Shown here piece after piece: positions 1,704 to 30,798 of a stretch of 32,000 bases of DNA. The position numbers and the translations under genes were made by a program. The notes under the pieces were generated by a model that saw nothing but the letters and a program-made list of their open reading frames with translations, was not told where the DNA came from and did no database searches. Each line of letters begins with the position of its first letter. Positions within the stretch are counted from its first letter, which is position 1. The stretch comes from Nanoarchaeum equitans Kin4-M (GTDB taxonomy: Archaea; Nanobdellota; Nanobdellia; Nanobdellales; Nanoarchaeaceae), in the NCBI GenBank assembly GCA_000008085.1, contig AE017199.1, forward strand, positions 330,001 to 362,000, written 5' to 3'.

Positions 1704-1758
1704 CCGGGGCAGTGGGGTCGAGAACCCCGTATGCTAGACCTGGCTACACCACGGGGGC
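1703..1758 (-). tRNA. tRNA-Glu(CUC) 5' half (split tRNA gene)
   Basis: Minus strand 1758..1719 reads GCCCCCG UG GUGU AGCCAGGUCUA GCAU A CGGGG UUCUCG. That is the acceptor 5' strand, the D arm, the anticodon-stem 5' strand and loop nt 32-37 with anticodon CUC. A 16-nt GC-rich tail ACCCCACUGCCCCGGC (1718..1703) follows instead of a variable loop and T arm. A TTTTTAAA box at 1786..1779 sits exactly 20 nt before G1. Confidence 0.85.
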
Positions 1759-3861: not shown

Positions 3862-4560
3862 ATGCGCGTAATAGTATTCTTCGTAGAGCCTGAGAAAGTT
3901 GATAACATAGGAGCAATGGCAAGGGTTTGCAAAAACTTTAATGCAGATTTATATTTAATTAACCCAAAAGTAGATAACTACGAAAAAGCCTTTGTTGTAG
4001 CAAAGCATGCCCAAGATTTATTGCAAAAAGCGATAGAGAATAAGCTAAATAGTATAGATGAAGCAAAAGAATTAGTTGATATAAGTGTGGGCACTACAGG
4101 AAAAATAGCTAACGAATACAATGTATTAAGAAGCCCTTTAAAACCATGGGAATTAGCAGAGAGGTTTGCCAATAGCGATATAAAACTTGGTATATTTATT
4201 GGAAGAGAAAGCATAGGTTTAACTAATGAAGAGCTATCAAAAATGGATTTTATTGTTACTATTCCTGCGAATAAAGAATATCCAATACTAAATGCTACCC
4301 ATGCTACAGCAATAATTTTATATGAATTATTCAAACATTCAAAAGAAGGGCATGTTAATTTAGCTTTACCAAAAAAAGAACAAATCGATGTTTTATTAGA
4401 TTATGTGAAGAAAATAATTGATAAACTGCCTCAACCAGATTATAGAAAGGAATATTATTTTATAATAATGAGAAAACTTATTACGCAAGGCATAATAAAT
4501 AGCAGGGAAGCCAATACATTAATTGGGTTTTTTAGATCTATATATGAAAATCTCAAATGA
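3862..4560 (+). CDS. SPOUT-class RNA 2'-O-methyltransferase (SpoU/TrmH, TrmJ/LasT-like)
   Basis: 232 aa. VFFVEPEKVDNIGAMARVCKNFNADLYLINPK (SpoU motif 1), IFIGRESIGLTNEEL (motif 2), and LNATHATAIILYEL (motif 3, knot). Confidence 0.75.
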   Translation: MRVIVFFVEPEKVDNIGAMARVCKNFNADLYLINPKVDNYEKAFVVAKHAQDLLQKAIENKLNSIDEAKELVDISVGTTGKIANEYNVLRSPLKPWELAERFANSDIKLGIFIGRESIGLTNEELSKMDFIVTIPANKEYPILNATHATAIILYELFKHSKEGHVNLALPKKEQIDVLLDYVKKIIDKLPQPDYRKEYYFIIMRKLITQGIINSREANTLIGFFRSIYENLK

Positions 4561-4606
4561 AGATATTGTGTGCTTCTGAACTAATGATGAAAGGAGCAGG
4601 AACAGA
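4557..4606 (+). ncRNA. C/D box sRNA (sRNA-1)
   Basis: AUGAAGA-UAUUGUGUGCUU-CUGA-ACUA-AUGAUGA-AAGGAGCAGGAA-CAGA. This is C, a 12-nt guide, D', a 4-nt spacer, C', a 12-nt guide, and D, 50 nt in total. The C box contains the UGA stop codon (4558-4560) of the upstream gene. The C(U5>A)/D(U2>A) change is compensatory at the K-turn U:U position. Confidence 0.65.
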
Positions 4607-4614
4607 TTATTAAA
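4607..4614 (+). promoter_or_regulatory. TATA box for the 4635 gene
   Basis: TTATTAAA followed by 20 nt, then the A of ATG at 4635. The box abuts the D box of sRNA-1. Confidence 0.6.
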
Positions 4615-5378: not shown

Positions 5379-7457
5379 ATCCATGGCATAGAGCCAAGAG
5401 AATACCAAAAAAGAATATTCGAGACCGCTAAAAACTATAATACATTAATAGTATTGCCAACAGGTTTAGGGAAAACAGTAATAGCGTTAATGCTAATAGA
5501 GTATTTCAAACAAAAATACCCGGATAAAAAGATATTGTTTTTAGCTCCTACAAAACCTTTGGTTAATCAACATGTGGAATTTTTAAGAAAATATAGCGAT
5601 ATAGATCCAACAAAAATAGTTGGTATAAGTGGGGACATACCAAAAGAAAAAAGGGTAAAACTTTATAATGCCGATGTTATAGTTGCAACTCCCCAAACCA
5701 TAAAAAATGATTTGGCCAATAACTTAATAGATTTGAACAAATTCTCTTTAATTATATTTGATGAAGCGCATAGGGCTGTGGGTAACTATTCTTACACATA
5801 TATAGCTCGCAATTTCAATAATAGAATTGTAGGCCTAACCGCTTCCCCTGGGAGCGATGAAGAGAAAATAAAAGAAATAATAGAAAACTTAAAAATAGAG
5901 AGAATAGAATATAGAAACGAAGATTCCTCAGATGTTAGACCTTATGTAAAGAAAAAGGTTATAAAATATATCGGGGTAGCATTAGACAAAGAAATACTTA
6001 CAGCTTCTTCTCTTATACAAGAGGCGATAGAGATAAGGAAGAAAAAATTGGAAGAGCTTGGCATATTAAAGAGAAAAATAAAGGATATTGCTTTATTAAT
6101 GGAAGAGCTAAAGAAGAAACAAGCTTATAGCTTAGATGAAAGGGTAAAAGATGCTATAATTATTGGTTCTGAAATTTTAATTTTATTCCATGCTTTGAAA
6201 ACATTGCAAACCCAAACATATAGAGCATTTCTTAAATTTTGTGAAAACCTCTTCGAAAATGCCCAGAAATTAAGTGAAAAAAATGTTGCCGAAGATGTAA
6301 GGCTAAAAAAAGCATATTTGTATGTTAAAGATTTAGTTAAACAAGGCAAAGAACATCCAAAAATTAATGCTTTGTTAGAGATAATAAAAAAGAATAAAGA
6401 CAAAAAAATTATAGTTTTTGCCCAGCTTACAGATACGGTAATGCAGATAACTGAATTATTGAACAAAAATAACATAAAAGCTGTAGCGTTTACTGGTAAA
6501 AAGCTTATGACTCAAAAAAAGCAAATAGAGACTTTAGACAAATTTAGGGCTAATATATATAATGTTTTGGTTGCTTCTTCTGTTGCAGAAGAAGGGTTAG
6601 ATATACCGAAGGTGGATTTAGTAATATTTTATGAACCTATTCCCTCTGCAATTAGGGCCATACAAAGAAAAGGTAGAACCGGCAGGTTAAACTACGGTGA
6701 AGTAATAATATTGTATTCTAAAAATACTTTAGATGAAAAAGCTCTTTGGGCCTCTATTAGAAAAGAAAAAAAGATGTATGAAATATTGGAAAAACTTTCT
6801 AAAGAGGTTAAACCAAAAAAAGAGCAAACTTTAAACGAAGTATTGGGATTTAGATATAAAATTATTGCTGACCAAAGAGAACAAAATTCTTTAGTAGTAG
6901 ATGCGTTAAAAAAATTAGGTATAGGGGTTAAAATTGAGAATTTAGAGGTTGGCGATTATATAGTTGGCGATGTAGTAATAGAAAGAAAAACTATTAGGGA
7001 TTTCGTTGATTCTATAATAGATAATAGGATATGGGATCAAATGAATAAATTATCGCAATTAGATAAAAAACTTTTAATATTGGAAGGAGAAGAAGACCCA
7101 TATTTTATTAGAGATGTTAACCCCAATGTTATAAGGAGTGTTATATTAACTTTATCCTTAAAAGGGATACCAATAATAAGAACTAAAAACCCTATTGATA
7201 CAGCTTATTACATTAAAGTTTTGTCTGAAAAACAAAATAAACTGCCACAAATACCTAAAATAAAGAAAAAAGAACTAACTCCTAAAGAGGTTTTAGCTTC
7301 TTTTCCTGGTATTGGTGAAAAGAGTGCCGAAGAGCTATTAAAAAGATACAAAACTATAAAAAATGTTGTTAATGCTTCTTTATCGGGTTTATCTATTATT
7401 TTGGGGGAAAAGCGTGCTAAGAAGCTTAAAGAATTTTTAGAGAAAGAATATCAGTAG
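5379..7457 (+). CDS. hef: Hef-type helicase-nuclease (SF2 helicase + XPF/Mus81 nuclease + HhH2); start codon unresolved
   Basis: Helicase motifs LPTGLGKT, FDEAH, TASPG, QRKGRTGR. Nuclease motif GDYIVGDVVIERKTIRDFVDSI (GDXnERKX3D). C-terminal FPGIGEKSAEELL helix-hairpin-helix. The track starts at TTG 5454, but the in-frame upstream sequence IEPREYQKRIFETAKNYNTLIV (Q-motif region) is open back to 5376. Confidence 0.85.
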   Translation: MHGIEPREYQKRIFETAKNYNTLIVLPTGLGKTVIALMLIEYFKQKYPDKKILFLAPTKPLVNQHVEFLRKYSDIDPTKIVGISGDIPKEKRVKLYNADVIVATPQTIKNDLANNLIDLNKFSLIIFDEAHRAVGNYSYTYIARNFNNRIVGLTASPGSDEEKIKEIIENLKIERIEYRNEDSSDVRPYVKKKVIKYIGVALDKEILTASSLIQEAIEIRKKKLEELGILKRKIKDIALLMEELKKKQAYSLDERVKDAIIIGSEILILFHALKTLQTQTYRAFLKFCENLFENAQKLSEKNVAEDVRLKKAYLYVKDLVKQGKEHPKINALLEIIKKNKDKKIIVFAQLTDTVMQITELLNKNNIKAVAFTGKKLMTQKKQIETLDKFRANIYNVLVASSVAEEGLDIPKVDLVIFYEPIPSAIRAIQRKGRTGRLNYGEVIILYSKNTLDEKALWASIRKEKKMYEILEKLSKEVKPKKEQTLNEVLGFRYKIIADQREQNSLVVDALKKLGIGVKIENLEVGDYIVGDVVIERKTIRDFVDSIIDNRIWDQMNKLSQLDKKLLILEGEEDPYFIRDVNPNVIRSVILTLSLKGIPIIRTKNPIDTAYYIKVLSEKQNKLPQIPKIKKKELTPKEVLASFPGIGEKSAEELLKRYKTIKNVVNASLSGLSIILGEKRAKKLKEFLEKEYQ

Positions 7458-7500
7458 TGCCCATCACTCTTCATCTCTCTGGGTAGCCGTATGTCATCAT
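7451..7500 (-). ncRNA. C/D box sRNA (sRNA-2), D' guide complementary to the 16S rRNA 3' domain
   Basis: Minus strand: AUGAUGA-CAUACGGCUACC-CAGA-GAG-AUGAAGA-GUGAUGGGCACUA-CUGA, 50 nt. The C box contains the rps5 stop codon. The D box overlaps the last sense codon of hef. The first guide is complementary to GGUAGCCGUA, the conserved archaeal 16S sequence just upstream of helix 45. Confidence 0.8.
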
Positions 7501-8192
7501 TTGTTTATTATAGAGCCTTCTGTATAGCCAGAGAACTTTATAAAGAATGGTTGTACTCTTACATTCGATAGCTTCTTCAAAGCATCGAATACTGCAAATA
7601 CATGGTTCATTTTAGTTTTGGTCTTACCGAAAGATCTAACCCAAACATCTTTTATTCCGGCCAATCTAAATATTTTCTTTATCTCATCGTCTGCAACTAT
7701 TCCTACTCCCTTTGGAGCTGGTTTTAATATAACTCTAACACTTCCGGATTTGCCCTCAACTTGGTATGGAATAGAATGGGGAGCCCCACAAGCACATTCC
7801 CAAGAACCACAACCTCTCGCAACTTTTATTATATTTAGTTTAGCTCTATTAATAGCTTTTTCTCTAGCTATCAATAAATCGGAGCTTCTTCCTAATCCAA
7901 CTCCAACATGGCCATCTTTGTCTCCTACTATGGCAATAACTTCGTATCTCGTTTTATTACCTTCAGCAGTTTTCTTTTGTGCCATTCTATATGGTTTTTT
8001 AGACCTAAACTTACCTCTTATTATACGCCATTTCATAAATTCAACCTCTAAATTTGGTAACAATACATCAACTATCTCTGGTTCTCTAATAACATATTTA
8101 TTAGATAATATCTCATCTATATTTGTTATTTTACCCTCTTTGACTAACCTGCCTAACTTGGTTTTAGGTTGCCATTCCTCTATATTAACCAT
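7497..8192 (-). CDS. rps5: 30S ribosomal protein uS5
   Basis: 231 aa. VIAIVGDKDGHVGVGLGRSSDLLIAREKAINRAKLNII and the C-terminal GIVADDEIKKIFRLAGIKDVW are typical of S5. GTTTTAAA at 8221-8214 gives a start 1 nt before the ATG. Confidence 0.9.
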   Translation of the reverse strand: MVNIEEWQPKTKLGRLVKEGKITNIDEILSNKYVIREPEIVDVLLPNLEVEFMKWRIIRGKFRSKKPYRMAQKKTAEGNKTRYEVIAIVGDKDGHVGVGLGRSSDLLIAREKAINRAKLNIIKVARGCGSWECACGAPHSIPYQVEGKSGSVRVILKPAPKGVGIVADDEIKKIFRLAGIKDVWVRSFGKTKTKMNHVFAVFDALKKLSNVRVQPFFIKFSGYTEGSIINK

Positions 8193-8222: not shown

Positions 8223-9353
8223 TTATCTAGTGATTTGCAAGTTTTTCAATTCTTCTAAATATTTGTTACCTTTTCCTTCTAAGAAATATTTTCTAGCAGG
8301 CTCTAATATTTCTATTAGCTTTTCTGCTACATACTCTTTTAAATCTAATGGATGTATTTGCTTTTTAGCATACGCTTCTTTTAATTGTTCGACATTATCA
8401 AATTCCATTGTTTGATGGGTTTTTTTGTTTTCTATTACTATGGGCTCTTTTAATATTGGATATATAACATATTCGACCAATTCTATTATTGGGTTTAGCT
8501 CTATTTCCCCTATGGGGCAATAAGCCTTTCTAATTTTTCTCCTTATATCTTCGGGAGTATCATGAATAAATATTGCAGTCTCGGGTTTAGATTTAGACAT
8601 TTTGATATCTATAACACTGTCCTCAAATAATTCCCTATTGTTTGTTTTCTTAGCCTCTAATAGTTTTTGTCTAATATTCTCATCTATATGCATTCCTAAT
8701 AATAAATGATGGTGTACAGCTATGGGCTTATAACCAAAAGCATCTGAAACCTCTATGGCTATAACATGGGCCTTCCTTTGGTCTATTCCCCCATGGGCTA
8801 AATTAACATTTAAGCTATATATATCTGCAACTTGCATAGGCACATATAATAATTGGGCGAAACTTATTGATTCTCCTTGCTTTCTTCCCATAATAGTTAT
8901 GCCCTTTTTAATTCTATTTAATGTTGTGTTCATAGAGATTTTTATTATGTTTTCTAGATATTCTATACCCAATTTCTCATACAATTCAGAGCCTAAGACT
9001 ACTTTTACTTCGTCTGGGTCTCCTCCTACAGTTTTAAGCGAAACCTTTAATGCTTCAGCGAAATAACCTTTCGCGACTTTTCTTATTGTTTCTAAATCCC
9101 CGCCTAACTTTTTATTAATCCATGAATGGTAATCCGCTAAAAATAAAGTAGTTTTAACTTTGGCTTTTTGAAAATCTCTAACTTTTAGCATAGAAATTAT
9201 TCCTGTGCCTAAATGCACAAAACCAGAGATTTCAAAACCAATGTAATGGTTTAAATCTATTCCTTGTTCTAAATATTGCTTTAACCTATCGATAGTAAGA
9301 ATTTCTTCTGTGGGCTTTTGTGCGATGAGGTTTATTCTTTCTTCTATATCCAT
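8223..9353 (-). CDS. tyrS: tyrosyl-tRNA synthetase
   Basis: 376 aa class I aaRS. HLGT (HIGH-type) and KMSKS motifs. [16 protein letters not shown] and [24 protein letters not shown] resemble archaeal TyrRS, not TrpRS. Confidence 0.85.
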
Positions 9354-9374
9354 TATTTTAAAGCGAATCCCTAA

Positions 9375-9390
9375 TTTAAAAGCCTTTAAA
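9375..9390. promoter_or_regulatory. back-to-back divergent TATA boxes (tyrS / H/ACA RNA)
   Basis: Minus-strand CTTTTAAA at 9382-9375 gives a start at 9354 (ATG 9353). Plus-strand CCTTTAAA at 9383-9390 gives a start at G9411. Confidence 0.7.
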
Positions 9391-9410
9391 TTCTTTATAT
9401 ATTATTCTAT

Positions 9411-9567
9411 GGCAAGGGACCGGCGGCCGAGAGGTGTAACCTATGACTGTCCCGTCAGGGATAGGATGAATAGGTCCCACCGCGGCCGTCGACAGCCCGG
9501 CACGAGAGTCCCCGAGTGAGAAGGCTATGGCCGTCGATGAGCTCGGGTGTTAGTGTGCGGGCAACAC
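9411..9567 (+). ncRNA. two-hairpin box H/ACA guide sRNA
   Basis: GC-rich island. Hairpin 1: a 9-bp lower stem (9421-9429/9483-9491), a pocket (AGAGGUGUAA / UCCCACCG), a 5-bp upper stem (9440-44/9470-74), a K-turn (GA 9445-46 opposite the GAU bulge plus GA at 9465-69), a 7-bp stem with a GUCA loop, and ACA at 9492-94. Hairpin 2: a lower stem (9495-9503/9555-9562), a pocket (GAGAGU / UGUUAGU), an upper stem (9511-16/9542-47), an identical GAU-GA K-turn (9536-40 opposite GA 9518-19), an apical stem with a UAUG loop, and ACA at 9564-66. Both ACA boxes lie 14-16 nt from the top of the 3' pocket strand. A T5 run follows. Confidence 0.8.
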
Positions 9568-9575
9568 TTTTTAAA
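9568..9575 (+). promoter_or_regulatory. TTTTTAAA: oligo-T terminator of the H/ACA RNA doubling as the TATA box of rpl41e
   Basis: T5 immediately follows the second ACA box. The same octamer lies 20 nt before 9596, and the ATG is at 9597. Confidence 0.6.
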
Positions 9576-9704: not shown

Positions 9705-10183
9705 AATTCTCACTAAAGGTTTTAGTTATATTCCTTTATAGTGCTTTTTTAATAACATTTCTCGATTTGTATGTTAACTATCTAAAGGGAGAAACATTTA
9801 GATATATATTTTTTGATTTGGTTGGTTATCATATATTTCCATATTTGTTTGTTTTGATAGCGCCTTGGTTACCTTTAATTATTTTCTACCCGGAAAAACT
9901 AAATATATGGATTGCCGGAATAATAGCGAGCTCTTTGATTAACGATTTGGTATGGTGTATATTTTATTCAATAGACAATTGCTTATATAGAGAATTTCTT
10001 TCAAACGATATATGGATGGTTTTAGATATAGGGATAAAAATCAAAATACCGGGGATAGCGATGCTATTTTTTAGTATAGCGAGAGTTTTGCTAATAATTT
10101 ATTTAACTAGAGAGTATCTTTTTAATTTTTTCAGGCAAATAGTCAATATAAAGTTTCCCATTAACAAACGCATAAGGGTATAG
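9701..10183 (+). CDS. hypothetical integral membrane protein
   Basis: 160 aa with 4-5 predicted TM helices. Its ATG overlaps the rpl41e stop (ATGA), suggesting translational coupling. The 3' end overlaps the convergent 1012-aa gene by 81 nt. Confidence 0.5.
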   Translation: MKFSLKVLVIFLYSAFLITFLDLYVNYLKGETFRYIFFDLVGYHIFPYLFVLIAPWLPLIIFYPEKLNIWIAGIIASSLINDLVWCIFYSIDNCLYREFLSNDIWMVLDIGIKIKIPGIAMLFFSIARVLLIIYLTREYLFNFFRQIVNIKFPINKRIRV

Positions 10184-13141
10184 CTTTTTCTCTAAATATT
10201 GGTTATACAATAAATACTTTACCCCAACTTTCTTTAATTCTTCTATCGAGGCTTTCTCTATATATTGCTGCAATTGATATACGGCATAAGCTTCCTCTAC
10301 TTCATTTAATTGTTTGTCTCCAACTAATTTGGCAACCCTTCTAAAATCTTCGGGGCTATTAACATATAACCTCGCTCTTAAGCAGTAATCTCCATAAGCT
10401 TTTAGTATGGCTAATTTAGATTGCCCATCTAAATGTTTCAAAGCACACTTTACCGAATCATAATCACATAGTTTAGCTTTCTCTATACAGCTTTTAGTTA
10501 TTTCTATTTTGGCCTCTTTTGGAAGTTTGTCCCAGCAACTTACACAACAATTATCAATATTTTTAGCATGGCCTTTTATTTTGAATATCGCATCATATAA
10601 CATTTTATAAGTATCGGAAACAACATTTGTTATTTTTTCTAATAGTTTTTGTATATTTCCTATTAACCCATTAATGAAACCTATTGAATCTTTTAACAAA
10701 AGCAACGCACTAACTGCTCCCGCTCCAACAAATGGTATTGCTGCTGCTCCTGGTATTAATACACCAATGGCACACTCTAATATGGGGAAAACTATTTTAG
10801 CTAATATCATTAACAGGGAATTTACTATATATAATACGGCTAATATGTTTGCTAACATGTATGCAATATCTATTAGCGAAGGCATTTTACCATCTCTAAT
10901 ATTGGCTATCAAAGAATCTACTTCTTTTTTAGATTTGCCTAACATCGCATTTATTTGATCTATTTGTTTTTCCATATTAGAATTGCCCAAATCACATAGA
11001 TACAATAAACCGTCTAATTTGCTTACATCTATGTTTGCGAAATTTTTTAATACTCTCTCTATTTGGTCTTTGTTTTCTCCAACCACTTTGGCATAGCCAT
11101 TTTTTACTTCTAATGACAATTGGTATAAATATAATAAGTTCTTTTTACATTGCGATAATTTATTATAATCGAACCTATTTTTATAATAGTTTATCAAAAA
11201 GTTGAATAGCTTAGAACAGGATAATCGCGTTATAGATGTGTTATCCCAATATTTTACTATTAAATCAGCAACTCTAATTAGCTTGCTATCTAATGAAGGA
11301 TGTTGGTAGAAATCATACAATATGGCCATTTCATTATAAAGCTCTTCCGCTTTCTCCCTTAGCTCTGTGCTATTGTTATATTGTAATTCTTGGGCATATT
11401 GTTTATACACAGATTTTACATATTGATAAGTAAGGTTTGCGGCTTCTTTGACATAGTCCAATAACAAGTTTTTCTCTTTCGAGCTAACCAAATAAGAATA
11501 ATATAAAACTTTGTTTAACCACAAGTTTTTGTTATTGAATTCGTTTATCTCTTTATCTATTTTTTTCGCAATAAATGATATTAAAATTAAGGGATTTGCT
11601 TTATCTCTTATATCGTTTACTATATTGTTAGCGCATTTGTAAACAAATAAAAACCTATAATCGCTTGTATCAACATAAGTTACTTGTTTGTGTTTAGATA
11701 TTATCCAAATTGAGTTAAAATATACGTTACCTTTTCCAGTTTTTCCCTTAGTTCTTAAGAATTTATTACTATTGCTAATTATATATTGGTAGTTAGACCC
11801 AAACCCAAAATACCCGGCAATATCTTTATTACAACTACTTACTTTGGTGTTTAAGCTTTGAACCCACCTTTTTTTGTTTTCTACATAATTATATAAATCA
11901 TATTCATAACCTGCATATTCTTCATCGCCAGCATATACATTGTTTATATTAGAATAGCATTCTTTTAAGTTACAGTTACAATTTAAGTCTGTATTGTTAT
12001 CATTGGAAGCCCAACCATAATTACTATCATATTTGGGAGTAACTATAGTTTTAATTTTCCCTACATTGTTTATTATATCGTAAAATTCCTTCATACGGCT
12101 TTTTATATTAGAAAGATGTGATTTTAGTTGTTTTAAATCGTTCTGCGCTTTGCTAAGCAAATTAGATAGCAATAGCAATATTATTATTAATGGTGCCATC
12201 GTTGTTACATAATCTAAACAAAATCTGCTCGCTTTTATTTTAATTTTGGCTTCATACTCCAATGGGGGTAGTTCTATTTGAGAATCGAACCTATTATTAA
12301 AAACATACGATGGAACAGTTATAGACATTTTTTGATTAACATTTATTGGATTGTTAAAAGAGATAGACAATAAATTATTACCAAAATTGGATATAATAGA
12401 ACAAGCACTTCTTGCTATGCTCTCTATTATCCTATTTAATGGTATTTCAAACCGAGGAATACATACCCCACAAAGAAATGGAAAATTAAAGAATATATTG
12501 CCTATTCTATAATTGAACTCTATTCTTTTATTTATTTGGGCGTTTACATTTACATTGGAAAAACCAACATTGATCGGTTTCCCCTCTAAAGGTTTATTCT
12601 CTATTATCGATTTCTGTATTTCTTCGCCTTTCGCTTCTAATATTGTTTTGCCCCTTTCCTCTTTGGAAAAAGTTTTATAATACCTATTCCCAAATATGTT
12701 GCTATCTAAAATAAGGTTTACCCTAATGTATGGCCATTTTATTTTGTATTTTTCATTAGGGTTTACATCATTGGGAGTGCCTGTTACATAAACTATTGGT
12801 TTTAAACCTATATTTGTGTTAAAATTAATTTTGGGCTTAATATTTAGATTACATACTATGTTTATCCATGGGTTTGTTCCAATTAATGAACTATATCTTT
12901 TTTCTATTTCATTAGGCTTTGGGGGCAAAGGATAATTTAGATTAACCCTTGGATTACTATTTAAAGCGCTTTTCATTAAATTTGGGCTAACAAAATTAAT
13001 CGGTATATTAATATTTGGCTTACCAGGATTGACATTGTATAAACCAGTATATTTATATGTATTGGTTTCTATGTCTATAGATAATTGAGATACTGCTATA
13101 GGAGTAAATATTAATAGTGAGGCCAAAAAGTAATGGCGCAC
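10103..13141 (-). CDS. large (1012 aa) secreted/membrane-anchored protein, function unknown
   Basis: GTG start at 13141, exactly 20 nt downstream of ATTTTAAA (13169-13162). N-terminal signal-like MRHYFLASLLIFTPIAVSQL. An Asn/Pro-rich, beta-like N-terminal third. Internal hydrophobic segments (MAPLIIILLLLSNLL; IAYMLANILAVLYIVNSLLMILAKIVFPILECAIGVLIPGAAAIPFVGAGAVSALLLL). A Cys-rich helical C-terminus. Confidence 0.7.
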   Translation of the reverse strand: MRHYFLASLLIFTPIAVSQLSIDIETNTYKYTGLYNVNPGKPNINIPINFVSPNLMKSALNSNPRVNLNYPLPPKPNEIEKRYSSLIGTNPWINIVCNLNIKPKINFNTNIGLKPIVYVTGTPNDVNPNEKYKIKWPYIRVNLILDSNIFGNRYYKTFSKEERGKTILEAKGEEIQKSIIENKPLEGKPINVGFSNVNVNAQINKRIEFNYRIGNIFFNFPFLCGVCIPRFEIPLNRIIESIARSACSIISNFGNNLLSISFNNPINVNQKMSITVPSYVFNNRFDSQIELPPLEYEAKIKIKASRFCLDYVTTMAPLIIILLLLSNLLSKAQNDLKQLKSHLSNIKSRMKEFYDIINNVGKIKTIVTPKYDSNYGWASNDNNTDLNCNCNLKECYSNINNVYAGDEEYAGYEYDLYNYVENKKRWVQSLNTKVSSCNKDIAGYFGFGSNYQYIISNSNKFLRTKGKTGKGNVYFNSIWIISKHKQVTYVDTSDYRFLFVYKCANNIVNDIRDKANPLILISFIAKKIDKEINEFNNKNLWLNKVLYYSYLVSSKEKNLLLDYVKEAANLTYQYVKSVYKQYAQELQYNNSTELREKAEELYNEMAILYDFYQHPSLDSKLIRVADLIVKYWDNTSITRLSCSKLFNFLINYYKNRFDYNKLSQCKKNLLYLYQLSLEVKNGYAKVVGENKDQIERVLKNFANIDVSKLDGLLYLCDLGNSNMEKQIDQINAMLGKSKKEVDSLIANIRDGKMPSLIDIAYMLANILAVLYIVNSLLMILAKIVFPILECAIGVLIPGAAAIPFVGAGAVSALLLLKDSIGFINGLIGNIQKLLEKITNVVSDTYKMLYDAIFKIKGHAKNIDNCCVSCWDKLPKEAKIEITKSCIEKAKLCDYDSVKCALKHLDGQSKLAILKAYGDYCLRARLYVNSPEDFRRVAKLVGDKQLNEVEEAYAVYQLQQYIEKASIEELKKVGVKYLLYNQYLEKKLYPYAFVNGKLYIDYLPEKIKKILSS

Positions 13142-13650: not shown

Positions 13651-14637
13651 GTGAAAGCTATCCTAAAAGATGTTACTTCTTTAGTTTCTAATTTTAATAG
13701 CAAAATAATACAAAAATCATTGAAAGAAGGGAAAAGGGCTTATATTATAGTTTTACCCAAGTTTGCAGGCCTTTTAAAATATGAAATAGGTAAAAGGAGG
13801 GTTGCTAAAGAATTGGTCGATGTTATTAAAAGGTTAGGCGTTAAAGGAATAATACATAGTGACGAATTGCCCAATTACGGTATAACCGAAGAAAATGTTA
13901 AACAAATTAGGGATTTTTTAAACATAAATGAAGAGGACGCTTTTATTATTTATTTGGTTGAACCTGAAAAATATAAAATTATCGCTGAAGCAATAATAAA
14001 TAGGCTAAACGAAATGATAAAATCTATTCCTAAAGATACTAGGCAAGCTCTAGAGGATGGAACTACTGCTTTTCTTAGGCCAAGGCCTGGTGCATCTAGA
14101 ATGTATCCCGAAACGGATCATCCATTAATTTTTATAGAAAAAACAAAGGATGGCTATTTAGTAAAGTATGGAGACAAAGAGTTTATTTATAAACCCAAAA
14201 AAATCGATTATGATAAAATATTTCAATACCTAAAAGAAAAAACTAATGAGAATTTGGCTAATGCCATAATTAAGAGCGAACATGTTTATTACATTATGGA
14301 GCTTTTTGAAAAATACAAAAACATAAAACCAACAATAATTGCTTCCATATTTTTTAACCCTGATGTAAAAATAGACTATAAAAAGATAGACATTGCCCTA
14401 AATGCTTTGAGTAAGGGTTTAATAACAAAAGAAGCGTTAGTAGATGTAATAAATAGTGATAACCCTGAAAAAACTATTAATGAATTAAAAGCTCTATCAA
14501 AAGAAGAAGCGAAAACAATTATTATGGATTTAATTAAAAAACATGGAAAAAAAGCTAAAGCCATAGCTTTCAAAGAGTTAAGAAAAAGAGTAGATCCGAA
14601 AATTATTAATGAAATTTTCCAAGAATTAGAAGGATAA
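13651..14637 (+). CDS. gatE: Glu-tRNA(Gln) amidotransferase subunit E, C-terminal half only (split gene)
   Basis: 328 aa starting inside the GatE insertion domain. HSDELPNYGITEENVKQIRDFL and DTRQALEDGTTAFLRPRPGASRMYPETDHP match the middle of GatE, followed by a helical/YqeY-like tail. The N-terminal catalytic cradle (about 270 aa) is absent. The gene has its own leaderless GTG promoter. Confidence 0.75.
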   Translation: MKAILKDVTSLVSNFNSKIIQKSLKEGKRAYIIVLPKFAGLLKYEIGKRRVAKELVDVIKRLGVKGIIHSDELPNYGITEENVKQIRDFLNINEEDAFIIYLVEPEKYKIIAEAIINRLNEMIKSIPKDTRQALEDGTTAFLRPRPGASRMYPETDHPLIFIEKTKDGYLVKYGDKEFIYKPKKIDYDKIFQYLKEKTNENLANAIIKSEHVYYIMELFEKYKNIKPTIIASIFFNPDVKIDYKKIDIALNALSKGLITKEALVDVINSDNPEKTINELKALSKEEAKTIIMDLIKKHGKKAKAIAFKELRKRVDPKIINEIFQELEG

Positions 14638-17639: not shown

Positions 17640-17777
17640 ATGCCAATATATGTTTGCTTTAATTGTGGGAGGGAAATAAAAATAGAAGGCAAACCAAGAT
17701 CGAGATGCCCATATTGTAATTCTACACTATTGTTCAAAAAACCCCCAAGGTTAACTAAACATCTAAAAGCTAGGTAA
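17640..17777 (+). CDS. rpoP: DNA-directed RNA polymerase subunit Rpo12 (RpoP)
   Basis: 45 aa, not in the ORF track: MPIYVCFNCGREIKIEGKPRSRCPYCNSTLLFKKPPRLTKHLKAR. It has a C4 zinc ribbon (CxxC...CxxC) followed by the basic tail typical of RpoP. Its stop codon shares nt 17777 with the 3' end of the convergent tRNA-Thr. Confidence 0.8.
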   Translation: MPIYVCFNCGREIKIEGKPRSRCPYCNSTLLFKKPPRLTKHLKAR

Positions 17778-17848
17778 GCCGCCGGCGGGATTCGAACCCG
17801 CGACCTCCGCCTTACCAGGGCGGCGCTCTTCCGCTGAGCTACGGCGGC
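17777..17848 (-). tRNA. tRNA-Thr(GGU)
   Basis: Minus strand: GCCGCCG UA GCUC AGCGGAA GAGC G CCGCC CUGGUAA GGCGG AGGUC GCGGG UUCGAAU CCCGC CGGCGGC U. This is a full cloverleaf with anticodon GGU and discriminator U, no intron, and no encoded CCA. TTTTTAAA lies exactly 20 nt upstream of G1. Confidence 0.95.
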
Positions 17849-17868
17849 GTAGGAGTATAGATGCAACA

Positions 17869-17884
17869 TTTAAAAATCTTTAAA
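17869..17884. promoter_or_regulatory. back-to-back divergent TATA boxes (tRNA-Thr / AAA+ gene)
   Basis: Minus-strand TTTTTAAA at 17876-17869 gives G1 at 17848. Plus-strand TCTTTAAA at 17877-17884 gives the G of GTG at 17905. Confidence 0.75.
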
Positions 17885-19715: not shown

Positions 19716-20635
19716 AGGAATGGTCCAACCAATAAAGGCAATATTATAGTTACATCTCCCCAAATAGTTACATGTTTTGCTTTTTTGTCTATTTTACCCC
19801 AACTAATTGCCTCTCTCGTTCTAGCCCCAGAGAGAGAGCCATCTAACTCTACTGCAGAAGTAACATACACAGCATATTTTAGACCATTGGAAAATTGAGC
19901 CCACCATATTGTGTGGTGTTTAGAGATACCCCCTCCAAGCATTAATGCGCCTATATTTTTATCCCCAAAGAATTGGTTTAGCAAAAATTCTTCATCTAAC
20001 CATACATTTACATTAAAATCTCTATGTTCTTGTCTGAACAATAAAATTTGGGTACCAACTGCTCCATCGGTTATGCCAGGTATTATTATAGGAATTCTAT
20101 TTTTGTAAGCCCAATAAATAATAGATTCTTCTTTTTTGGGATGGTTTTCTAAATATTCCCCTAAAAGCCATACAAATTCATATGTGGATAACTCTTTCTT
20201 TTTATTATAAATATAAGGTAAAGCTTTTTTTAGTATATTCTCTATTGCCAGACCATAGTTTTCCTCAGGAATAAAAATGTTTCCCAATCTAAATATGTTT
20301 TTCTCTCTCAACTCTATATCGTCCGCTTCAAAGTATCCTAAATAATAATCTTTTTCCAACCTCGCTAAGTCATGGTCTAATGTACCACAAGTAGTTATAA
20401 CTAAATCGAACATTTTTCTTTTTATTAACTCTTTTATTATCCCTCTAATCCCTGTTGCAATAATGTCGGCAGGAAAACTTAATATTTTGTATTCGGCATT
20501 ATCAAACATCTCTTTTAATATTTCGTAACCTCTATACAGTTCTTGTGCTTGGAATCCTCCAATGGAAGAAAACTGTTTTATCAATTCTTCTATTGTTGTG
20601 TTTTTATTTACATTTAAATCTCTAACAGGTTTCAT
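19712..20635 (-). CDS. dys: deoxyhypusine synthase
   Basis: 307 aa. TTCGTLDHDL, IPIIIPGITDGAVG and LGGGISKHH motifs of DHS. Its ATG overlaps the stop of the upstream 1050-aa gene (TAATG). Confidence 0.9.
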   Translation of the reverse strand: MKPVRDLNVNKNTTIEELIKQFSSIGGFQAQELYRGYEILKEMFDNAEYKILSFPADIIATGIRGIIKELIKRKMFDLVITTCGTLDHDLARLEKDYYLGYFEADDIELREKNIFRLGNIFIPEENYGLAIENILKKALPYIYNKKKELSTYEFVWLLGEYLENHPKKEESIIYWAYKNRIPIIIPGITDGAVGTQILLFRQEHRDFNVNVWLDEEFLLNQFFGDKNIGALMLGGGISKHHTIWWAQFSNGLKYAVYVTSAVELDGSLSGARTREAISWGKIDKKAKHVTIWGDVTIILPLLVGPFL

Positions 20636-23600
20636 TATTTTTGTTTGTCAGACAATTTATAAATAACATTGAAAACCTTTAGCTCTTCTTTTAGGTTATC
20701 TAGTATCTTTTTTGTATCTTCATTATTAAATGTATAGCTATGCGGTTTTAATGTTATATAAGGATAAAACATTGTTACCAATTGGGGATAACCTATAATA
20801 TCTTTAGCTCTTTTGTACACATATTCATAGGCTAACTTTCTTAAAGCGTAGTTAAGATAATCTAAAAAGGTTGAATTAACTTCGATAGGAAAGGAATATT
20901 TATCATAAACTAAGGGCACTATTATTGTATCTATGTGGAATAATATGATATGTTTATTCCCAAATAGGGGATCGCCATTAACTAGGATTTTTCTATCTAT
21001 GTCATTGCCATCCATATTATTACTGGGAGTAAATACTATAGCTAGAACATTATTATTTTTGTCTACTAGAAACAAATAACCATAGACATCTTTTACAAGA
21101 TATGAATCCTTATTAGTTTTAAAAAATAAACCAATCCAATCGCCAGTATAGTAAGTATAGGTAGTACTAGAGAACCAGCCTTTGTCTTCGTATTCTTTAA
21201 AGAAAGTTTTTTCTGGGAACTTTCTTAGTTCTAGTTTATCCCCTCCCCATACAGGAAAATAGTTATTAACTATAGCGTGGGGCCAGCTTTCTATTACTCC
21301 ATAAACTTTGTTCCTACTTATGACTAAAGCTGTTCTTCGGGGGAAATAAACTATATCATAATTATTTATAATATGAACATTAGGTTTTTCGTCTACCCAT
21401 ATTTTTTTCAACCCATACTTCAGCCTATATCCTTTAGGAGTATCTATTTCTTTTAATGCTGGGATAAAAGATATTTTTATTGTATCTAACACATATTCGG
21501 GACTATCCGTTAACCCCCGAGAATATACGCTAAAAACAAAATCGTAATCTATGGGCTTTATATTATCTATTTCAGAGATAATGTGTAAAGGTATAATTCT
21601 TTTTTCATCTCTGTCTAATTTGTTATTCTCATTCCAATCCATAGGACACACAAATTTGTTTTCTCTCCATTTGCACGCATAAGCTATAGCTATTACAGTA
21701 TTGTTAAGCCATATAGATTTGCCATCATCTAATATGAAAAAATTCAATGTTATTAATTTGTAAGGGTTTTTTAATAAGTTTACCGCTTCTCTTTTTAGTT
21801 CTTTCTCGAAAGCCTTGTAGAATTCTTCTTTATCAAATTTAGATGGCAATAACTCTAAAGGTTTGCCCTTATTGTAAATAGCTATATAAGGTAAAACTTC
21901 CAATGTTTTATTATTTATATAATAGTAAGCCTTTAATTGTACCTTGTACCATAAATCAATTTCTTCTATTCTATCATCAAAAGAGCAATTTGCTTCTATA
22001 TGATTTTCTTTTAAAACTCCATCGCAAAGGTAATATTTGTCCCTATATATCTTTAATCCATACTGTGGTTTTTTAATAAACATAAAGGTTTTTCCATCTC
22101 TCTTTATCTCTTTTATTTTTTCATAATCAATTGTTATTATAACAGTATTGTCTTTTATATCTAATTTCGCACCGCAAGGGTATTCTATTACTAAACATAT
22201 TTTCCCCTCACAACTGCTAAAATATATATTAATATAGTTTATTTTTTTGCAAACAGTTTTAATTTCTTTGTCTGCAGTTATTTTTATGATAACCTTATTA
22301 GCAAGCTTTTCTACATCTATACTAGGGGGAGCAAGTTCAATATTTTTTGCTTCTCCACTATTTAATTCTATATAAGCGCTACCCTTCCCTTTAATATTTA
22401 GTTGGGCCCACCCTATATAGTAATTGTCATATCTTGCTTCAATTTTTATGTTATCTTTGTTTGTTTCGCATATATAATAATTAACCTCTTTATCACATTT
22501 TTCGCCATTTACAAAAATCTCCATATTATTATACTCTTTTTTTGTTGGCTCTATTTTTAGTTTAATATTTTCTTCTTTGTTAATCAATATTTTAAAATCT
22601 GTTTCGAATTCTCCGCAAATATCATATGCTTCTATTCTTTTACCGGGCTTACCTTCTGGAGTACATATGGTAAAACCTTCAATTTGCTTATATATGCTAC
22701 ATAACCTTTTCCCAATTTTCGATAATATGTTGGAATTAATCTTTCTTATGTGTAATCCATCTTTTGCGAAACATTTGACTTCTAGGCCTTTTCCATAATA
22801 GTAAGTTTCCCTTTCTAAATAAGTTAGATCTCCTTTTTCTGTTTCTATAAAATAATTGCCTATATATTTGCCAACAGCTTTTTCCTTAAATAATGGGTTT
22901 ATTTTGACAAAACATTTAGTTGGTATTCCTTCTACGGATTCTCCCTTATAAAGGGGATTTTCCAAAATTAGTTTTCCTTTTTGCAACGCATCTGCTTCGC
23001 ATACATCTGCTTTAATATAACCATTAGGGGTTTTTTTAACTAATTGGGCATCTATTTTGGCCTTTCCAATATAAATATAACCATTTCCATTTTCATCATA
23101 CTCTCCATCAATTATATAGGTTTTTCTAACTAAAACAGTATTAAAATTGAATACAAATTCATAATTACCTGGTTTTAATGCTGTTTCCGGTATGCTATTT
23201 AAATCGCATACGATTTCTTTTTTATTATCGCTATCTATATCTTTAAAATCACAATTCCAGATTATTCTACTAACTTCCACTGTAACTTTTTTTATATTGT
23301 CTAATAATTTGTCTATTTCGCCTAATGCATCAACTTCAAAATATAATATATTACTATAGCGAGGAGTTATTAAAATAGGAGAACAATATGTTACATATAA
23401 ATCATGTAAACTTCCCGTTTGTTCACTAACCAACACTTTAGAATTGAGTATTTCCGATACTAGTGTAGTTCTATCCCCTATTTTTATAGAAATGTGGTTT
23501 TCTTTAGCTATTGTTGAACAATCCTCAGTTGGGTTATTTTTTAATATAAAATAACCATCTTTTATACAAACTGTGGATAAAAACTTTCTAATACTATTTA

Positions 23601-23787
23601 AGTCTTCACAAGTTTTTTCGCTATTATACCAACTAACTAAAAAATCTATTACATTTGAAGGTTTTTCCCCAAATTTTACAGCTTTGTTTATAACGAAAGC
23701 ACTAGTAGCTAGGAATATACCTAATAATACCGCTTCGAATAGGACTTCTAAAGATCTATTCAATCCTCGTAATGGCATATTCCCCAT
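20635..23787 (-). CDS. large (1050 aa) Cys-rich surface protein with a class III (type IV pilin-like) signal-peptide-like N-terminus
   Basis: The N-terminus is M(GNM)PLRG-LNRSLEVLFEAVLLGIFLATSAFVI: short and basic, then Gly, then a ~22-residue hydrophobic helix with Glu at +6. The rest is beta-rich with many Cys, and I recognise no family. The start is ATG 23787 or 23778; both overlap the aIF2-alpha 3' end. Confidence 0.7.
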   Translation of the reverse strand: MGNMPLRGLNRSLEVLFEAVLLGIFLATSAFVINKAVKFGEKPSNVIDFLVSWYNSEKTCEDLNSIRKFLSTVCIKDGYFILKNNPTEDCSTIAKENHISIKIGDRTTLVSEILNSKVLVSEQTGSLHDLYVTYCSPILITPRYSNILYFEVDALGEIDKLLDNIKKVTVEVSRIIWNCDFKDIDSDNKKEIVCDLNSIPETALKPGNYEFVFNFNTVLVRKTYIIDGEYDENGNGYIYIGKAKIDAQLVKKTPNGYIKADVCEADALQKGKLILENPLYKGESVEGIPTKCFVKINPLFKEKAVGKYIGNYFIETEKGDLTYLERETYYYGKGLEVKCFAKDGLHIRKINSNILSKIGKRLCSIYKQIEGFTICTPEGKPGKRIEAYDICGEFETDFKILINKEENIKLKIEPTKKEYNNMEIFVNGEKCDKEVNYYICETNKDNIKIEARYDNYYIGWAQLNIKGKGSAYIELNSGEAKNIELAPPSIDVEKLANKVIIKITADKEIKTVCKKINYINIYFSSCEGKICLVIEYPCGAKLDIKDNTVIITIDYEKIKEIKRDGKTFMFIKKPQYGLKIYRDKYYLCDGVLKENHIEANCSFDDRIEEIDLWYKVQLKAYYYINNKTLEVLPYIAIYNKGKPLELLPSKFDKEEFYKAFEKELKREAVNLLKNPYKLITLNFFILDDGKSIWLNNTVIAIAYACKWRENKFVCPMDWNENNKLDRDEKRIIPLHIISEIDNIKPIDYDFVFSVYSRGLTDSPEYVLDTIKISFIPALKEIDTPKGYRLKYGLKKIWVDEKPNVHIINNYDIVYFPRRTALVISRNKVYGVIESWPHAIVNNYFPVWGGDKLELRKFPEKTFFKEYEDKGWFSSTTYTYYTGDWIGLFFKTNKDSYLVKDVYGYLFLVDKNNNVLAIVFTPSNNMDGNDIDRKILVNGDPLFGNKHIILFHIDTIIVPLVYDKYSFPIEVNSTFLDYLNYALRKLAYEYVYKRAKDIIGYPQLVTMFYPYITLKPHSYTFNNEDTKKILDNLKEELKVFNVIYKLSDKQK

Positions 23788-26510: not shown

Positions 26511-26533
26511 TTTTTAAACCAATTATTTATAAG
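26511..26533. promoter_or_regulatory. interleaved divergent TATA boxes (tRNA 3' half / membrane protein)
   Basis: Plus-strand TTTTTAAA at 26511-18 gives G26539. Minus-strand CTTATAAA at 26533-26 gives 26505. Confidence 0.7.
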
Positions 26534-26538
26534 GTTCT

Positions 26539-26598
26539 GGGCAGCCACGGGGCCCGAATTTGGTCCCCGTGACCCCGGTTCGAATCCGGGCGGGGCTA
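26539..26598 (+). tRNA. tRNA 3' half (split tRNA gene); the U72-type acceptor implies an A1:U72 tRNA (Gln or initiator Met candidate)
   Basis: GC-rich leader GGGCAGCCACGGGGCCC (26539-55), then GAAUUUGG, then U-CCCCG-UGAC-CCCGG-UUCGAAU-CCGGG-CGGGGCU-A. That gives an anticodon-stem 3' strand, a variable loop, a complete T arm, an acceptor 3' strand and discriminator A. There is no acceptor 5' strand or D arm upstream. The last 3 nt overlap the stop codon of the convergent gene, and a T-rich run follows. Confidence 0.85.
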
Positions 26599-27378
26599 CT
26601 CCTTTATTTTTCTTAATAACTTCTTATGCAATCTCTTAATCATCTCTTTTTTATCTTGCATAAATATTATATCACTTTGGCCCCATACTTCTAAATGCCA
26701 TGCAAATGGAGAAGGCATTTCCACTTCTTTTATATATATTTTCATTTTTTTAACTTTTCTCATAAATTCTTTAGCATGGAATATATCCATTTTATCCTCT
26801 AGAATTGTTCTATATGTTTCTTTCAATAAAGGAAAATCTGGGTAATGCTCTAAAAGGAAATTCAATAACGATTCTGCATTAATTTGTTGCCTCGATATTG
26901 GTATTTCTTTTCCCATGTATTTTTTTAGTATCATTAACCCTGTATTTGCCACATGTCTAAACACCCTCTTAAACATCTCGCTATTTTTAATGGCTTCTCT
27001 TAATATTTCTTCGAATTTATCTTCTTTTATTGATAATAAACCTAACAACTCTACTTTTTTTAATGCTTTCTCTTTTGGCACTATTATAGAAAAACCATAA
27101 TCCGATACAACTGTTCTTACATTAGTTCGCTTTTCTTTACTAATTAAATAAGCGAAAGCTCTAGACAAAGCATCGTTTGCTTTTCTTCCTAAAACAGTAT
27201 GAAAAATGTATTCTTCTATGTCATTATGGGGATATACCTCTATTAATAGTTCGTCTCTCTTTGGGATAAGCAAATATTTATATTGCTCTAACATATATTG
27301 GGCCAAATTTTTTGCTACTCTATCATTTACTTTGTATTTTTGTTTTATATAGTTAGTTAAATTCTCTATTTCAACCAT
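26596..27378 (-). CDS. Lhr-type large helicase-related protein, C-terminal (DEAD/H-associated) domain only (split gene)
   Basis: 260 aa. HTVLGRKANDALSRAFAYL, SDYGFSIIVP, FRHVANTGLMILKKY, DFPLLKETYRTILEDKMD and MPSPFAWHL resemble the domain that follows the helicase core in Lhr/COG1201 proteins. No helicase core is present. Confidence 0.6.
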   Translation of the reverse strand: MVEIENLTNYIKQKYKVNDRVAKNLAQYMLEQYKYLLIPKRDELLIEVYPHNDIEEYIFHTVLGRKANDALSRAFAYLISKEKRTNVRTVVSDYGFSIIVPKEKALKKVELLGLLSIKEDKFEEILREAIKNSEMFKRVFRHVANTGLMILKKYMGKEIPISRQQINAESLLNFLLEHYPDFPLLKETYRTILEDKMDIFHAKEFMRKVKKMKIYIKEVEMPSPFAWHLEVWGQSDIIFMQDKKEMIKRLHKKLLRKIKE

Positions 27379-29134: not shown

Positions 29135-29446
29135 ATGGAAATTATCAAAGAAGAACCAATCACTAATGAAAAAGCCTATCAAATATTGGCTAAACAAAAA
29201 CAATTATCTTATAGAGCAGAAAGAACGAAAAAGTATTTGGAAAAAATCGGTTTTATAAAGAATAGTGACGAAATATTAAAGCAATTGGTTGATTTAGGCA
29301 TAGAGTTGGAAAAAGCGATAATGATTGTAAATACTATGCCAAAAACAAACGATGAAGTAAGGGCTATATTAGAAAAAGATTACACCCCCGAAATAGGCAA
29401 AAAAGTATTAGAAATAATGAAGAAGGCTTTAAGCTCTGAAAAATGA
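29135..29446 (+). CDS. rpoF: DNA-directed RNA polymerase subunit Rpo4 (RpoF)
   Basis: 103 aa from the ATG at 29135. The track ORF starts at TTG 29117, inside the promoter. ITNEKAYQILAK..LSYRAERTKKYLEKI...AIMIVNTMPKTNDEVRAIL fits the Rpb4/RpoF pattern. Confidence 0.7.
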   Translation: MEIIKEEPITNEKAYQILAKQKQLSYRAERTKKYLEKIGFIKNSDEILKQLVDLGIELEKAIMIVNTMPKTNDEVRAILEKDYTPEIGKKVLEIMKKALSSEK

Positions 29447-29466
29447 TGACCCCTGGCAGGGACAGA
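29417..29466 (+). ncRNA. C/D box sRNA (sRNA-3)
   Basis: AUGAAGA-AGGCUUUAAGCU-CUGA-AAA-AUGAUGA-CCCCUGGCAGGGA-CAGA, 50 nt. The first half overlaps the last 10 codons of rpoF. C' contains the rpoF stop codon. The D box ends 1 nt before the stop of the convergent pepA. Box variants are the same as in sRNA-1. Confidence 0.6.
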
Positions 29467-30798
29467 TTATAGCTTTTGAACCAATTTATATAATAACCTA
29501 ACCCCAAACCCCGTTAATCCTTTGTATGCGCTTGGTATTGCCCTATTAGCTATCGCTGGCCCAGCGATATCTAAATGTAGGAATTTTTCTATAGGGCTAA
29601 ACTCTTTCAAAAATAGCCCTCCCTGGATTGCATGCGCTTCTCTCCCATTAGCATTCTTAATATCTGCTACAGCACTTTTTAATAATTCTCTATAACCTTC
29701 ATATAAAGGTAATTCCCATACCAATTCGTAGACTTCCTTTCCCGCTTCAATTGCTTTATTTACTAAATCTTTTTCCCCCATCGCTGCGGCGATTTCGTGG
29801 CCCAAAGCGATTATTTGTCCTCCTGTTAATGTTGAAACCTCTATTATGGCTTTTGGATTATATTTTGCACTATAAGCAATTGCATCTGCCAATGTTAATC
29901 TTCCTTCTGCGTCGGTATTAGTTACTTCAACAGTTTTCCCATTATAAGCCTTTATTATGTCATTAACTTTATAGGATTCTCCTGAAATAACATTTTCTGC
30001 TATAGGTATTAACGCAACTATTGGAATATCTTTTTTGTTTTTAGCTATTGCATATAGCGCCCCAATTACTGCGGCAGAACCGGACATGTCTCCATGCATA
30101 TTATACATATAATCTGTGGGCTTCAACGAATAACCTCCTGTATCAAAGGTTATTGCTTTCCCAACTAAAACAATAGGGTTGTCCTTTAAATTGTATTCTA
30201 AAATAACTAACCTTGGTTTGTATATACTGCCTTTGCCTACATAAACCAATAAGTTTAACCCTTCTCTTATTAAATCGTCGTAATGTAATACTTTTATATT
30301 TACAGGCAATCCCTTAAATATCTCGATTATTTTCTTTTCATATGTTTCAGGATTTAATACATTTGGGGGTTCGTTAGCTAAATCCCTAGCTAAATATTGT
30401 GCTTCCATTAATGTGATATATTCTTTTACCTTCTCTTTGTCATCGCAAATAAATTTTATTATTTTCTCTTGCTTTTCGCTTTTGTATCTATCAAATATAT
30501 AAGATGTAGAAAGAATCCCAATAATGGCTTTATCTTTGCTCTCTATTTCTCTTAAATCTATTATAAATTCTTTGAACGGACTATTTTTTATATATCTTCC
30601 TGCTAAGAAATAGGCTTTCCATTCGTCTTTTACATAAACTATTAGATAATCTCTATCTTTTTTTACAAAAATAGCATTATCTCTTTTAAAGAAATCTTCA
30701 TCAACATTAGCATAGCTTTTTACTGATTCCCTATCTTTAAAGAACTTTACTATCACTCCCCCATCCGCGTGGTCTGTTAAATAAAATTTGGTTGGCAT
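29467..30798 (-). CDS. pepA: leucyl aminopeptidase (M17 family)
   Basis: 443 aa. VGKAITFDTGGYSLKP and NTDAEGRLTLADAIAY active-site motifs. Confidence 0.9.
   Translation of the reverse strand: MPTKFYLTDHADGGVIVKFFKDRESVKSYANVDEDFFKRDNAIFVKKDRDYLIVYVKDEWKAYFLAGRYIKNSPFKEFIIDLREIESKDKAIIGILSTSYIFDRYKSEKQEKIIKFICDDKEKVKEYITLMEAQYLARDLANEPPNVLNPETYEKKIIEIFKGLPVNIKVLHYDDLIREGLNLLVYVGKGSIYKPRLVILEYNLKDNPIVLVGKAITFDTGGYSLKPTDYMYNMHGDMSGSAAVIGALYAIAKNKKDIPIVALIPIAENVISGESYKVNDIIKAYNGKTVEVTNTDAEGRLTLADAIAYSAKYNPKAIIEVSTLTGGQIIALGHEIAAAMGEKDLVNKAIEAGKEVYELVWELPLYEGYRELLKSAVADIKNANGREAHAIQGGLFLKEFSPIEKFLHLDIAGPAIANRAIPSAYKGLTGFGVRLLYKLVQKL

Follow-up and report, generated by a model that had tools for sequence, protein, structure and literature searches.

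The GC-rich element at positions 26539-26598 of the forward strand is almost certainly a locus already published from Nanoarchaeum equitans, the 3′ half gene of its trans-spliced tRNA-Gln(UUG). The window, by which we mean the whole 32,000 nt stretch of DNA that was analysed, is NC_005213 330001-362000 (the offset of 330000 being anchored by three exact matches to published sRNA sequences and by the agreeing published position of an H/ACA sRNA), and the half gene occupies genome coordinates 356539-356598. Chan, Cozen & Lowe (2011, their Table 1; PMC3218864) list the mature part of the Gln(UUG) 3′ half as starting at 356559 on the forward strand, with precursor and mature lengths of ~61 and 40 nt, the 5′ half as starting at 419223 on the reverse strand (~49 and 33 nt), and the ligation site as 32/33. 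Their coordinate 356559(+) falls on window position 26559, the first U of the sequence UUUGGU, with strand and coordinate in agreement; the mature part (26559-26598) is 40 nt long, exactly the published length, and the precursor (26539-26598) is 60 nt, as compared with the published ~61 nt. Coordinate, mature length, anticodon and ligation site are all identical to those of the published 3′ half, so that the element departs in no respect from its published description and adds no new biology to what was already known.

N. equitans is known from textbooks for its split tRNA genes, a peculiarity that figures in the debate over whether tRNAs originated from two minigenes or were split late. Six tRNAs of this organism are trans-spliced, tRNA-Gln(UUG) among them, and the half genes published for it number 11, including the present locus, whose 32/33 junction is one of only two in N. 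equitans known to lie elsewhere than 37/38. Randau, Pearson & Soll reportedly described the split tRNA-Gln(UUG) in FEBS Lett in 2005, which would place the locus in the literature since that year. RNA-seq has detected all 11 halves and their termini and supported trans-splicing, the mature spliced tRNAs having been characterized earlier (Randau, 2012; PMC3491384). What we take from this literature is that a 5′ half exists and where it lies, that ligation is at 32/33, that the 11 halves are expressed and that trans-splicing occurs; the anatomy of the 3′ half, its Gln(UUG) identity, the spacing of its promoter and the exact agreement with the published locus come from our own analysis. The preliminary description of this DNA, made from the letters without database searches, had recognized a tRNA 3′ half, and the recovery of a known element from raw sequence shows that reading to have been sound. 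Its suggestion that the processing geometry deserved to be mapped comes late, since reports already exist on both halves, on the mature tRNA and on every precursor end (Randau, 2005; Randau, 2012, PMC3491384).

Anatomy and identity of the half gene

The element reads GGGCAGCCACGGGGCCCGAA followed by UUUGGUCCCCGUGACCCCGGUUCGAAUCCGGGCGGGGCUA (as a whole, GGGCAGCCACGGGGCCCGAAUUUGGUCCCCGUGACCCCGGUUCGAAUCCGGGCGGGGCUA), and its parts are listed in Table 1. When 26559-26598 was searched alone, Infernal returned a 5′-truncated match to the Rfam tRNA model (model positions 32-71 of 71, 20.5 bits, E = 0.0084), in which UUUGGU occupies loop columns, CCCCG forms the 3′ side of the anticodon stem, and a 4 nt variable loop, UGAC, leads into the T arm and acceptor strand. 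The T arm (CCCGG-UUCGAAU-CCGGG), acceptor strand (CGGGGCU) and discriminator A at 26574-26598 are just as they had been described; according to both the parse and Infernal this part of the tRNA body is contiguous and is by itself insufficient for a whole tRNA. Neither ARAGORN nor Rfam at the gathering threshold makes a call at the element, as is to be expected for a half gene, and their sole call in the window is tRNA-Thr(GGU) at 17777-17848(-). A permuted or contiguous tRNA gene at 26539-26598 was also considered and was rejected.

Table 1. Features of the Gln(UUG) half gene and other RNA genes of the window
Feature	Position	Strand	Remarks and basis
Archaeal box A (TATA-like), TTTAAA	26513-26518	+	Within TTTTTAAA at 26511-26518; starts 26 nt upstream of G26539
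Leader part 1, 14 nt GC-rich zipper GGGCAGCCACGGGG	26539-26552	+	Predicted to pair with the putative 5′-half trailer CCCCGUGGCUGCCC; sequence, promoter spacing, co-fold with predicted partner
Leader part 2, CCCG	26553-26556	+	Putative central 4 bp helix of the bulge-helix-bulge motif, with exon C27-G30; complementarity, co-fold
Predicted 3 nt bulge, A-A-U33	26557-26559	+	3′ splice site between 26558 and 26559; published 356559 and ligation site 32/33
Mature 3′ exon of tRNA-Gln(UUG), positions 33-73	26559-26598	+	40 nt; no position 47; CCA not encoded; Infernal, published size and coordinates
U33	26559	+	
Anticodon UUG	26560-26562	+	Infernal alignment
G37	26563	+	
U38	26564	+	
Anticodon-stem 3′ strand, CCCCG	26565-26569	+	
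Variable loop, UGAC	26570-26573	+	
T stem and loop	26574-26590	+	CCCGG 26574-26578, UUCGAAU 26579-26585, CCGGG 26586-26590
Acceptor 3′ strand, CGGGGCU	26591-26597	+	
Discriminator A73	26598	+	
Pyrimidine/T-rich stretch CTCCTTTATTTTTCTT, after A73	26599-26614	+	Likely archaeal terminator; sequence
tRNA-Glu(CUC) 5′ half	1703-1758	-	Published start 331758(-) (Chan et al., 2011; PMC3218864); TTTAAA at -26
C/D box sRNA17	4552-4611	+	Exact match to published sequence
C/D box sRNA18	7448-7505	-	Exact match to published sequence
Single N. equitans H/ACA sRNA	9411-9574	+	Published 339411-339574; TTTAAA at -26; GC island
tRNA-Thr(GGU)	17777-17848	-	74.9 bits; first base exactly 26 nt after TTTAAA
C/D box sRNA19	29412-29470	+	Exact match to published sequence

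Archaeal tRNA-Gln has the anticodon UUG or CUG, preceded by U33 and followed by a purine at position 37, and its A1:U72 pair and discriminator A73 are the features used by the GluRS/GatDE route. The half gene contains U33-UUG-G37 at 26559-26563, as placed by Infernal, together with U72 (26597) and A73 (26598); position 1 belongs to the 5′ half and lies outside the window. It had been argued from U72 that the missing half must supply A1 and that the tRNA was one for Gln or the initiator Met, which is correct as far as it goes. The element would be the 3′ half of the initiator tRNA-Met if U72 and A73 were considered by themselves, both being compatible with an archaeal initiator, in which A1:U72 is typical too, and if the split lay at 37/38, in which case no anticodon would be read in the half. 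However, Infernal puts U33-UUG-G37 in the anticodon-loop columns of the half itself, and since UUG lies inside 26559-26598 the identity is Gln and not initiator Met. The published initiator-Met 3′ half, moreover, is at 3254(+), far outside the window, and the present locus is listed as Gln(UUG) with its 5′ half at 419223(-) (Chan et al., 2011; PMC3218864), so that the initiator reading is hardly credible and the element is neither an orphan nor of ambiguous identity, as had been supposed.

The position of the junction can be read in a similar way. A 37/38 junction is found in four of the six split tRNAs of N. equitans (Chan et al., 2011; PMC3218864), and it could be imagined that here too the anticodon is supplied by the 5′ half, with GAAUUUGGU as an unusual intron or bulge sequence. 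But if the variable loop is 4 nt long, numbering backwards from the T arm assigns CCCCG to positions 39-43 and UUUGGU to positions 33-38, and the published mature 3′ part is 40 nt long, not 35-36 nt, with ligation at 32/33 (Chan et al., 2011; PMC3218864); we consider a canonical split very improbable. The preliminary description was right that the junction does not fit 37/38, and two of its details change with the 32/33 site: the leader is 20 nt long (26539-26558) rather than 17 nt, since the mature part starts at 26559, and the proposed pairing of GAAU with an A32-U33-U34-U35 loop of the other half is wrong, as U33-U35 belong to the 3′ half.

At its 3′ end the half gene has a 3 nt tail-to-tail overlap with a 260 aa DEAD_assoc ORF (26596-27378, reverse strand), whose TAG stop codon is the reverse complement of C71-U72-A73 (26596-26598). 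This ORF is probably NEQ409, the C-terminal piece of a split Lhr-type helicase.

Promoter, likely terminator and base composition

The element is 72 % GC and its leader (26539-26558) 75 % GC, in a window of 30.8 % GC. There are only four islands with at least 66 % GC in 50 nt (1695-1766, 9404-9569, 17758-17870 and 26525-26614), and the other three all correspond to known structured RNAs, namely the tRNA-Glu 5′ half, the H/ACA sRNA and tRNA-Thr. The same set is found from the promoters: TTTAAA, whose background frequency is 0.00175 per position and strand, is also present at -26 for the tRNA-Glu 5′ half (1758, reverse), tRNA-Thr (17848, reverse) and the H/ACA sRNA (9411, forward), and when TTTAAA at -26 is required together with a GC-rich 30-mer after it, just four RNA-gene 5′ ends are recovered in the window (1758, 9411, 17848 and 26539). 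The octamer TTTTTAAA is common to the promoters of the Glu 5′ half, tRNA-Thr and the Gln 3′ half. The element is far beyond chance.

A box A 26 nt upstream of the start has been reported for the tRNA and tRNA-half genes of N. equitans, as have T-stretch terminators downstream of its tRNA genes (Randau, 2012; PMC3491384). This spacing points to G26539 as the transcription start, in keeping with the earlier proposal of a half gene with its own promoter and a transcript that begins at the first G of the leader. It is scarcely conceivable that the element is a defunct piece of tRNA, left behind for instance by a rearrangement or at an integration site, with no part in making tRNA. Such a fragment might well go uncalled by tRNA finders and have an unremarkable self-fold, as this element does, but here there is a perfect promoter at -26 like those of functional RNA genes, a terminator-like T run and a full set of intact helices; in addition, RNA-seq detected all 11 halves and supported trans-splicing (Randau, 2012; PMC3491384), and, by published accounts, tRNA-Gln(UUG) is one of six essential isoacceptors that N. 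equitans assembles from halves.

The leader and stem had also been noted to be capable of folding on themselves (CACGGGG...CCCCGUG). This self-fold does form, although there is nothing unusual about its stability (z = -0.86), and a functional role for it was rejected on that basis.

Proposed pairing of the halves and splice motif

In the canonical bulge-helix-bulge (BHB) motif two 3 nt bulges flank a 4 bp helix, and the cuts fall between the second and third nucleotides of each bulge. An arrangement of this type can be drawn for the Gln halves, using complementarity rules and a predicted sequence for the partner. Positions 27-31 must be CGGGG because they pair with positions 39-43 (CCCCG), and C27-G30 can therefore also pair with CCCG of the leader (26553-26556). 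The leader would then be divided into 14, 4 and 2 nt, the last two probably forming a bulge with U33 (Table 1). When the element is co-folded with the predicted partner, with N for bases that are not fixed, a 14 bp helix, a 3 nt bulge and a 4 bp helix are obtained. Given the published sizes of the 5′ half, ~49 nt as precursor and 33 nt when mature, its trailer should be ~16 nt long, which fits a 14 nt zipper plus 1-2 nt and does not fit a zipper of 17 nt or more. The trailer predicted in the preliminary description (GGGCCCCGUGGCUGCCC) is thus probably 3 nt too long, in view of this published length and of the pairing of CCCG, which is most likely with C27-G30.

We propose that processing would proceed as follows. 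The box A promoter of the half gene drives a transcript of ~60 nt from G26539, consisting of a 20 nt leader and then tRNA positions 33-73, including the anticodon UUG. Annealing between the first 14 nt of the leader and the trailer of the 5′ half, which has a gene of its own (positions 1-32; 419223, reverse strand), would bring the two together, and the next four bases of the leader, CCCG, would pair with exon C27-G30, giving bulges of G31-N32-trailer nt 1 on one strand and A-A-U33 on the other, and a BHB motif displaced by 5 nt from its canonical place. The heterotetrameric splicing endonuclease NEQ205/NEQ261 would cut after position 32 and before U33, and an RNA ligase would join 32 to 33, after which the anticodon stem (27-31 with 39-43) would form and CCA would be added.

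An alternative is that there is no displaced BHB at all: with the anticodon stem already in place, cleavage would be at a relaxed bulge-helix-loop motif beside the 14 bp zipper. Relaxed motifs, trans bulge-helix-loop substrates among them, are tolerated by the (alpha-beta)2 endonuclease of N. equitans, which leaves room for such a reading. A truncated model gives both conformations essentially the same energy (-40.3 kcal/mol for the BHB-like fold and -40.4 kcal/mol for that with the anticodon stem formed), and folding energy alone thus picks neither as the processing conformation. However, with the anticodon stem formed U33 would lie in the 12 nt strand of an internal loop, with no 4 bp helix at the canonical distance from the cut, whereas pairing of CCCG with C27-G30 puts both published cuts between the second and third nucleotides of 3 nt bulges that are 4 bp apart. 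We therefore think the relaxed motif unlikely and prefer the displaced BHB.

If position 32 is an A, junctions at 31/32 and 32/33 would be indistinguishable by sequence alone. The numbering of junctions also varies among papers, the split of tRNA-Lys being given as 32/33 in one figure legend and as 30/31 by Chan et al. (2011; PMC3218864).

Among the nearest parallels is the tRNA-Lys(CUU) that is split in N. equitans and Staphylothermus, which like tRNA-Gln is trans-spliced and carries its anticodon in the 3′ half with the junction upstream of it, and which has the GC-rich zipper and the BHB that are predicted for tRNA-Gln; it differs in being another isoacceptor and in being joined at 30/31, two positions further 5′ and inside the anticodon stem, with a motif classed as canonical hBHBh′ (Chan et al., 2011; PMC3218864). 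The N. equitans tRNAs that are split at 37/38 (Glu CUC, Glu UUC, His and initiator Met) share with tRNA-Gln the TTTAAA at -26, a leaderless 5′ end, the complementary GC-rich leader and trailer that are predicted for tRNA-Gln, and the same endonuclease and ligase pathway, but have the anticodon in the 5′ half and build the central BHB helix from loop positions 32-35 and not from stem positions 27-30. Non-canonical cis introns at or near 32/33 in Crenarchaeota such as Pyrobaculum interrupt the anticodon loop at the same place and likewise depend on an endonuclease of the (alpha-beta)2 type, with its tolerance of BHB motifs that are displaced or relaxed; these are single transcripts, however, whereas the tRNA-Gln 'intron' is itself interrupted and its two pieces are transcribed ~63 kb apart.

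The gene for the 5′ half is located ~57 kb outside the window, in the neighbourhood of NEQ475, which encodes a CDC48-type ATPase. Within the window, a search for the 17 nt trailer predicted earlier (GGGCCCCGTGGCTGCCC) with up to three mismatches found only the complement of the leader itself, and no partner lies in this stretch; the tRNA-Glu 5′ half at 1703-1758, with which the element does not pair, had rightly been dismissed. Across 185,579 species genomes the 17-mer gave 107 chance matches in high-GC bacteria and no nanoarchaeal locus, and even the window's own copy was missing from these matches, its source region appearing to be masked or absent in that collection; this 17-mer was longer by 3 nt than it should have been. 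A corrected pattern, AGCCCCG-N(20-40)-CCCCGTGGCTGCCC, which would match both halves, had 17 chance matches in metagenome contigs (GC 0.53-0.74, none of them tRNA-like) and none in viral contigs. Sequences of the half were sought in the full text of papers and none was found, and the supplements of Randau (2012; PMC3491384), Fujishima (2008) and Giannone (2011) hold coverage numbers, sRNA tables and protein lists, with no tRNA-half sequences or peptides.

Public contigs that encode proteins of the window are 100 % identical to it over every overlap and represent the same strain. In short-read assemblies of this strain (Logan ERR97657xx and SRR4136252) the contigs from both sides end within the T arm, at 26569 and 26590, presumably as a result of T-arm sequence that is common to other tRNA genes, and half genes of this sort are easily lost at contig ends.

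Part of the zipper resembles the tRNA itself. CACGGGG in the leader (26546-26552) is the exact reverse complement of CCCCGUG in the exon (26565-26571, positions 39-45), and from this complementarity the trailer of the 5′ half would begin with a 7 nt copy of positions 39-45 (9 of 14 nt identical overall). The tRNA-Glu(CUC) 5′ half (1703-1758, reverse strand) has a layout like that of Gln, with one bulge base and a zipper, at the canonical site: after CUCG37 and the splice site it reads A and then CCCCACUGCCCCGGC, and the start of this trailer (A-CCCCA) matches the start expected of the missing 3′ exon (A38 and C39-C42). Such resemblances would be accounted for if the zippers were fossils of the tRNA, each half gene being a decayed copy of a full-length or overlapping tRNA gene, which we offer as a speculative and rather doubtful idea suggested by the sequence comparison. 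Were it true, it would favour late splitting by duplication or rearrangement over ancestral minigenes, and the joined halves would toggle between a processing fold and one like that of the mature tRNA. We found no statement of this idea in the literature examined, a body of work outside which the primary 2005 papers fall.

Other RNAs and reading frames in the window

The three C/D box sRNAs in the window correspond to sRNA17 (334552), sRNA18 (337448) and sRNA19 (359412), which are published as RNAs of 58-60 nt (Randau, 2012, Additional file 2; PMC3491384). These and the H/ACA sRNA are seen by Rfam only below threshold, in matches resembling sR18, sR5 and HgcG, and the sub-threshold HgcG match at ~9348-9571 coincides with the H/ACA sRNA. 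Two very large ORFs, at 10103-13141 (1012 aa) and 20635-23787 (1050 aa), both on the reverse strand, have no Pfam match at E <= 0.001.

The position of its box A indicates that tRNA-Thr(GGU) is transcribed without a 5′ leader, which agrees with the reported absence of RNase P in N. equitans. A 328 aa ORF with a GAD domain at 13651-14637 on the forward strand, 13 kb from the Gln half gene, is presumably NEQ396, a piece of a split GatE. GatDE converts Glu-tRNA-Gln to Gln-tRNA-Gln, and the nearness of this gene to a tRNA-Gln half is probably a coincidence.
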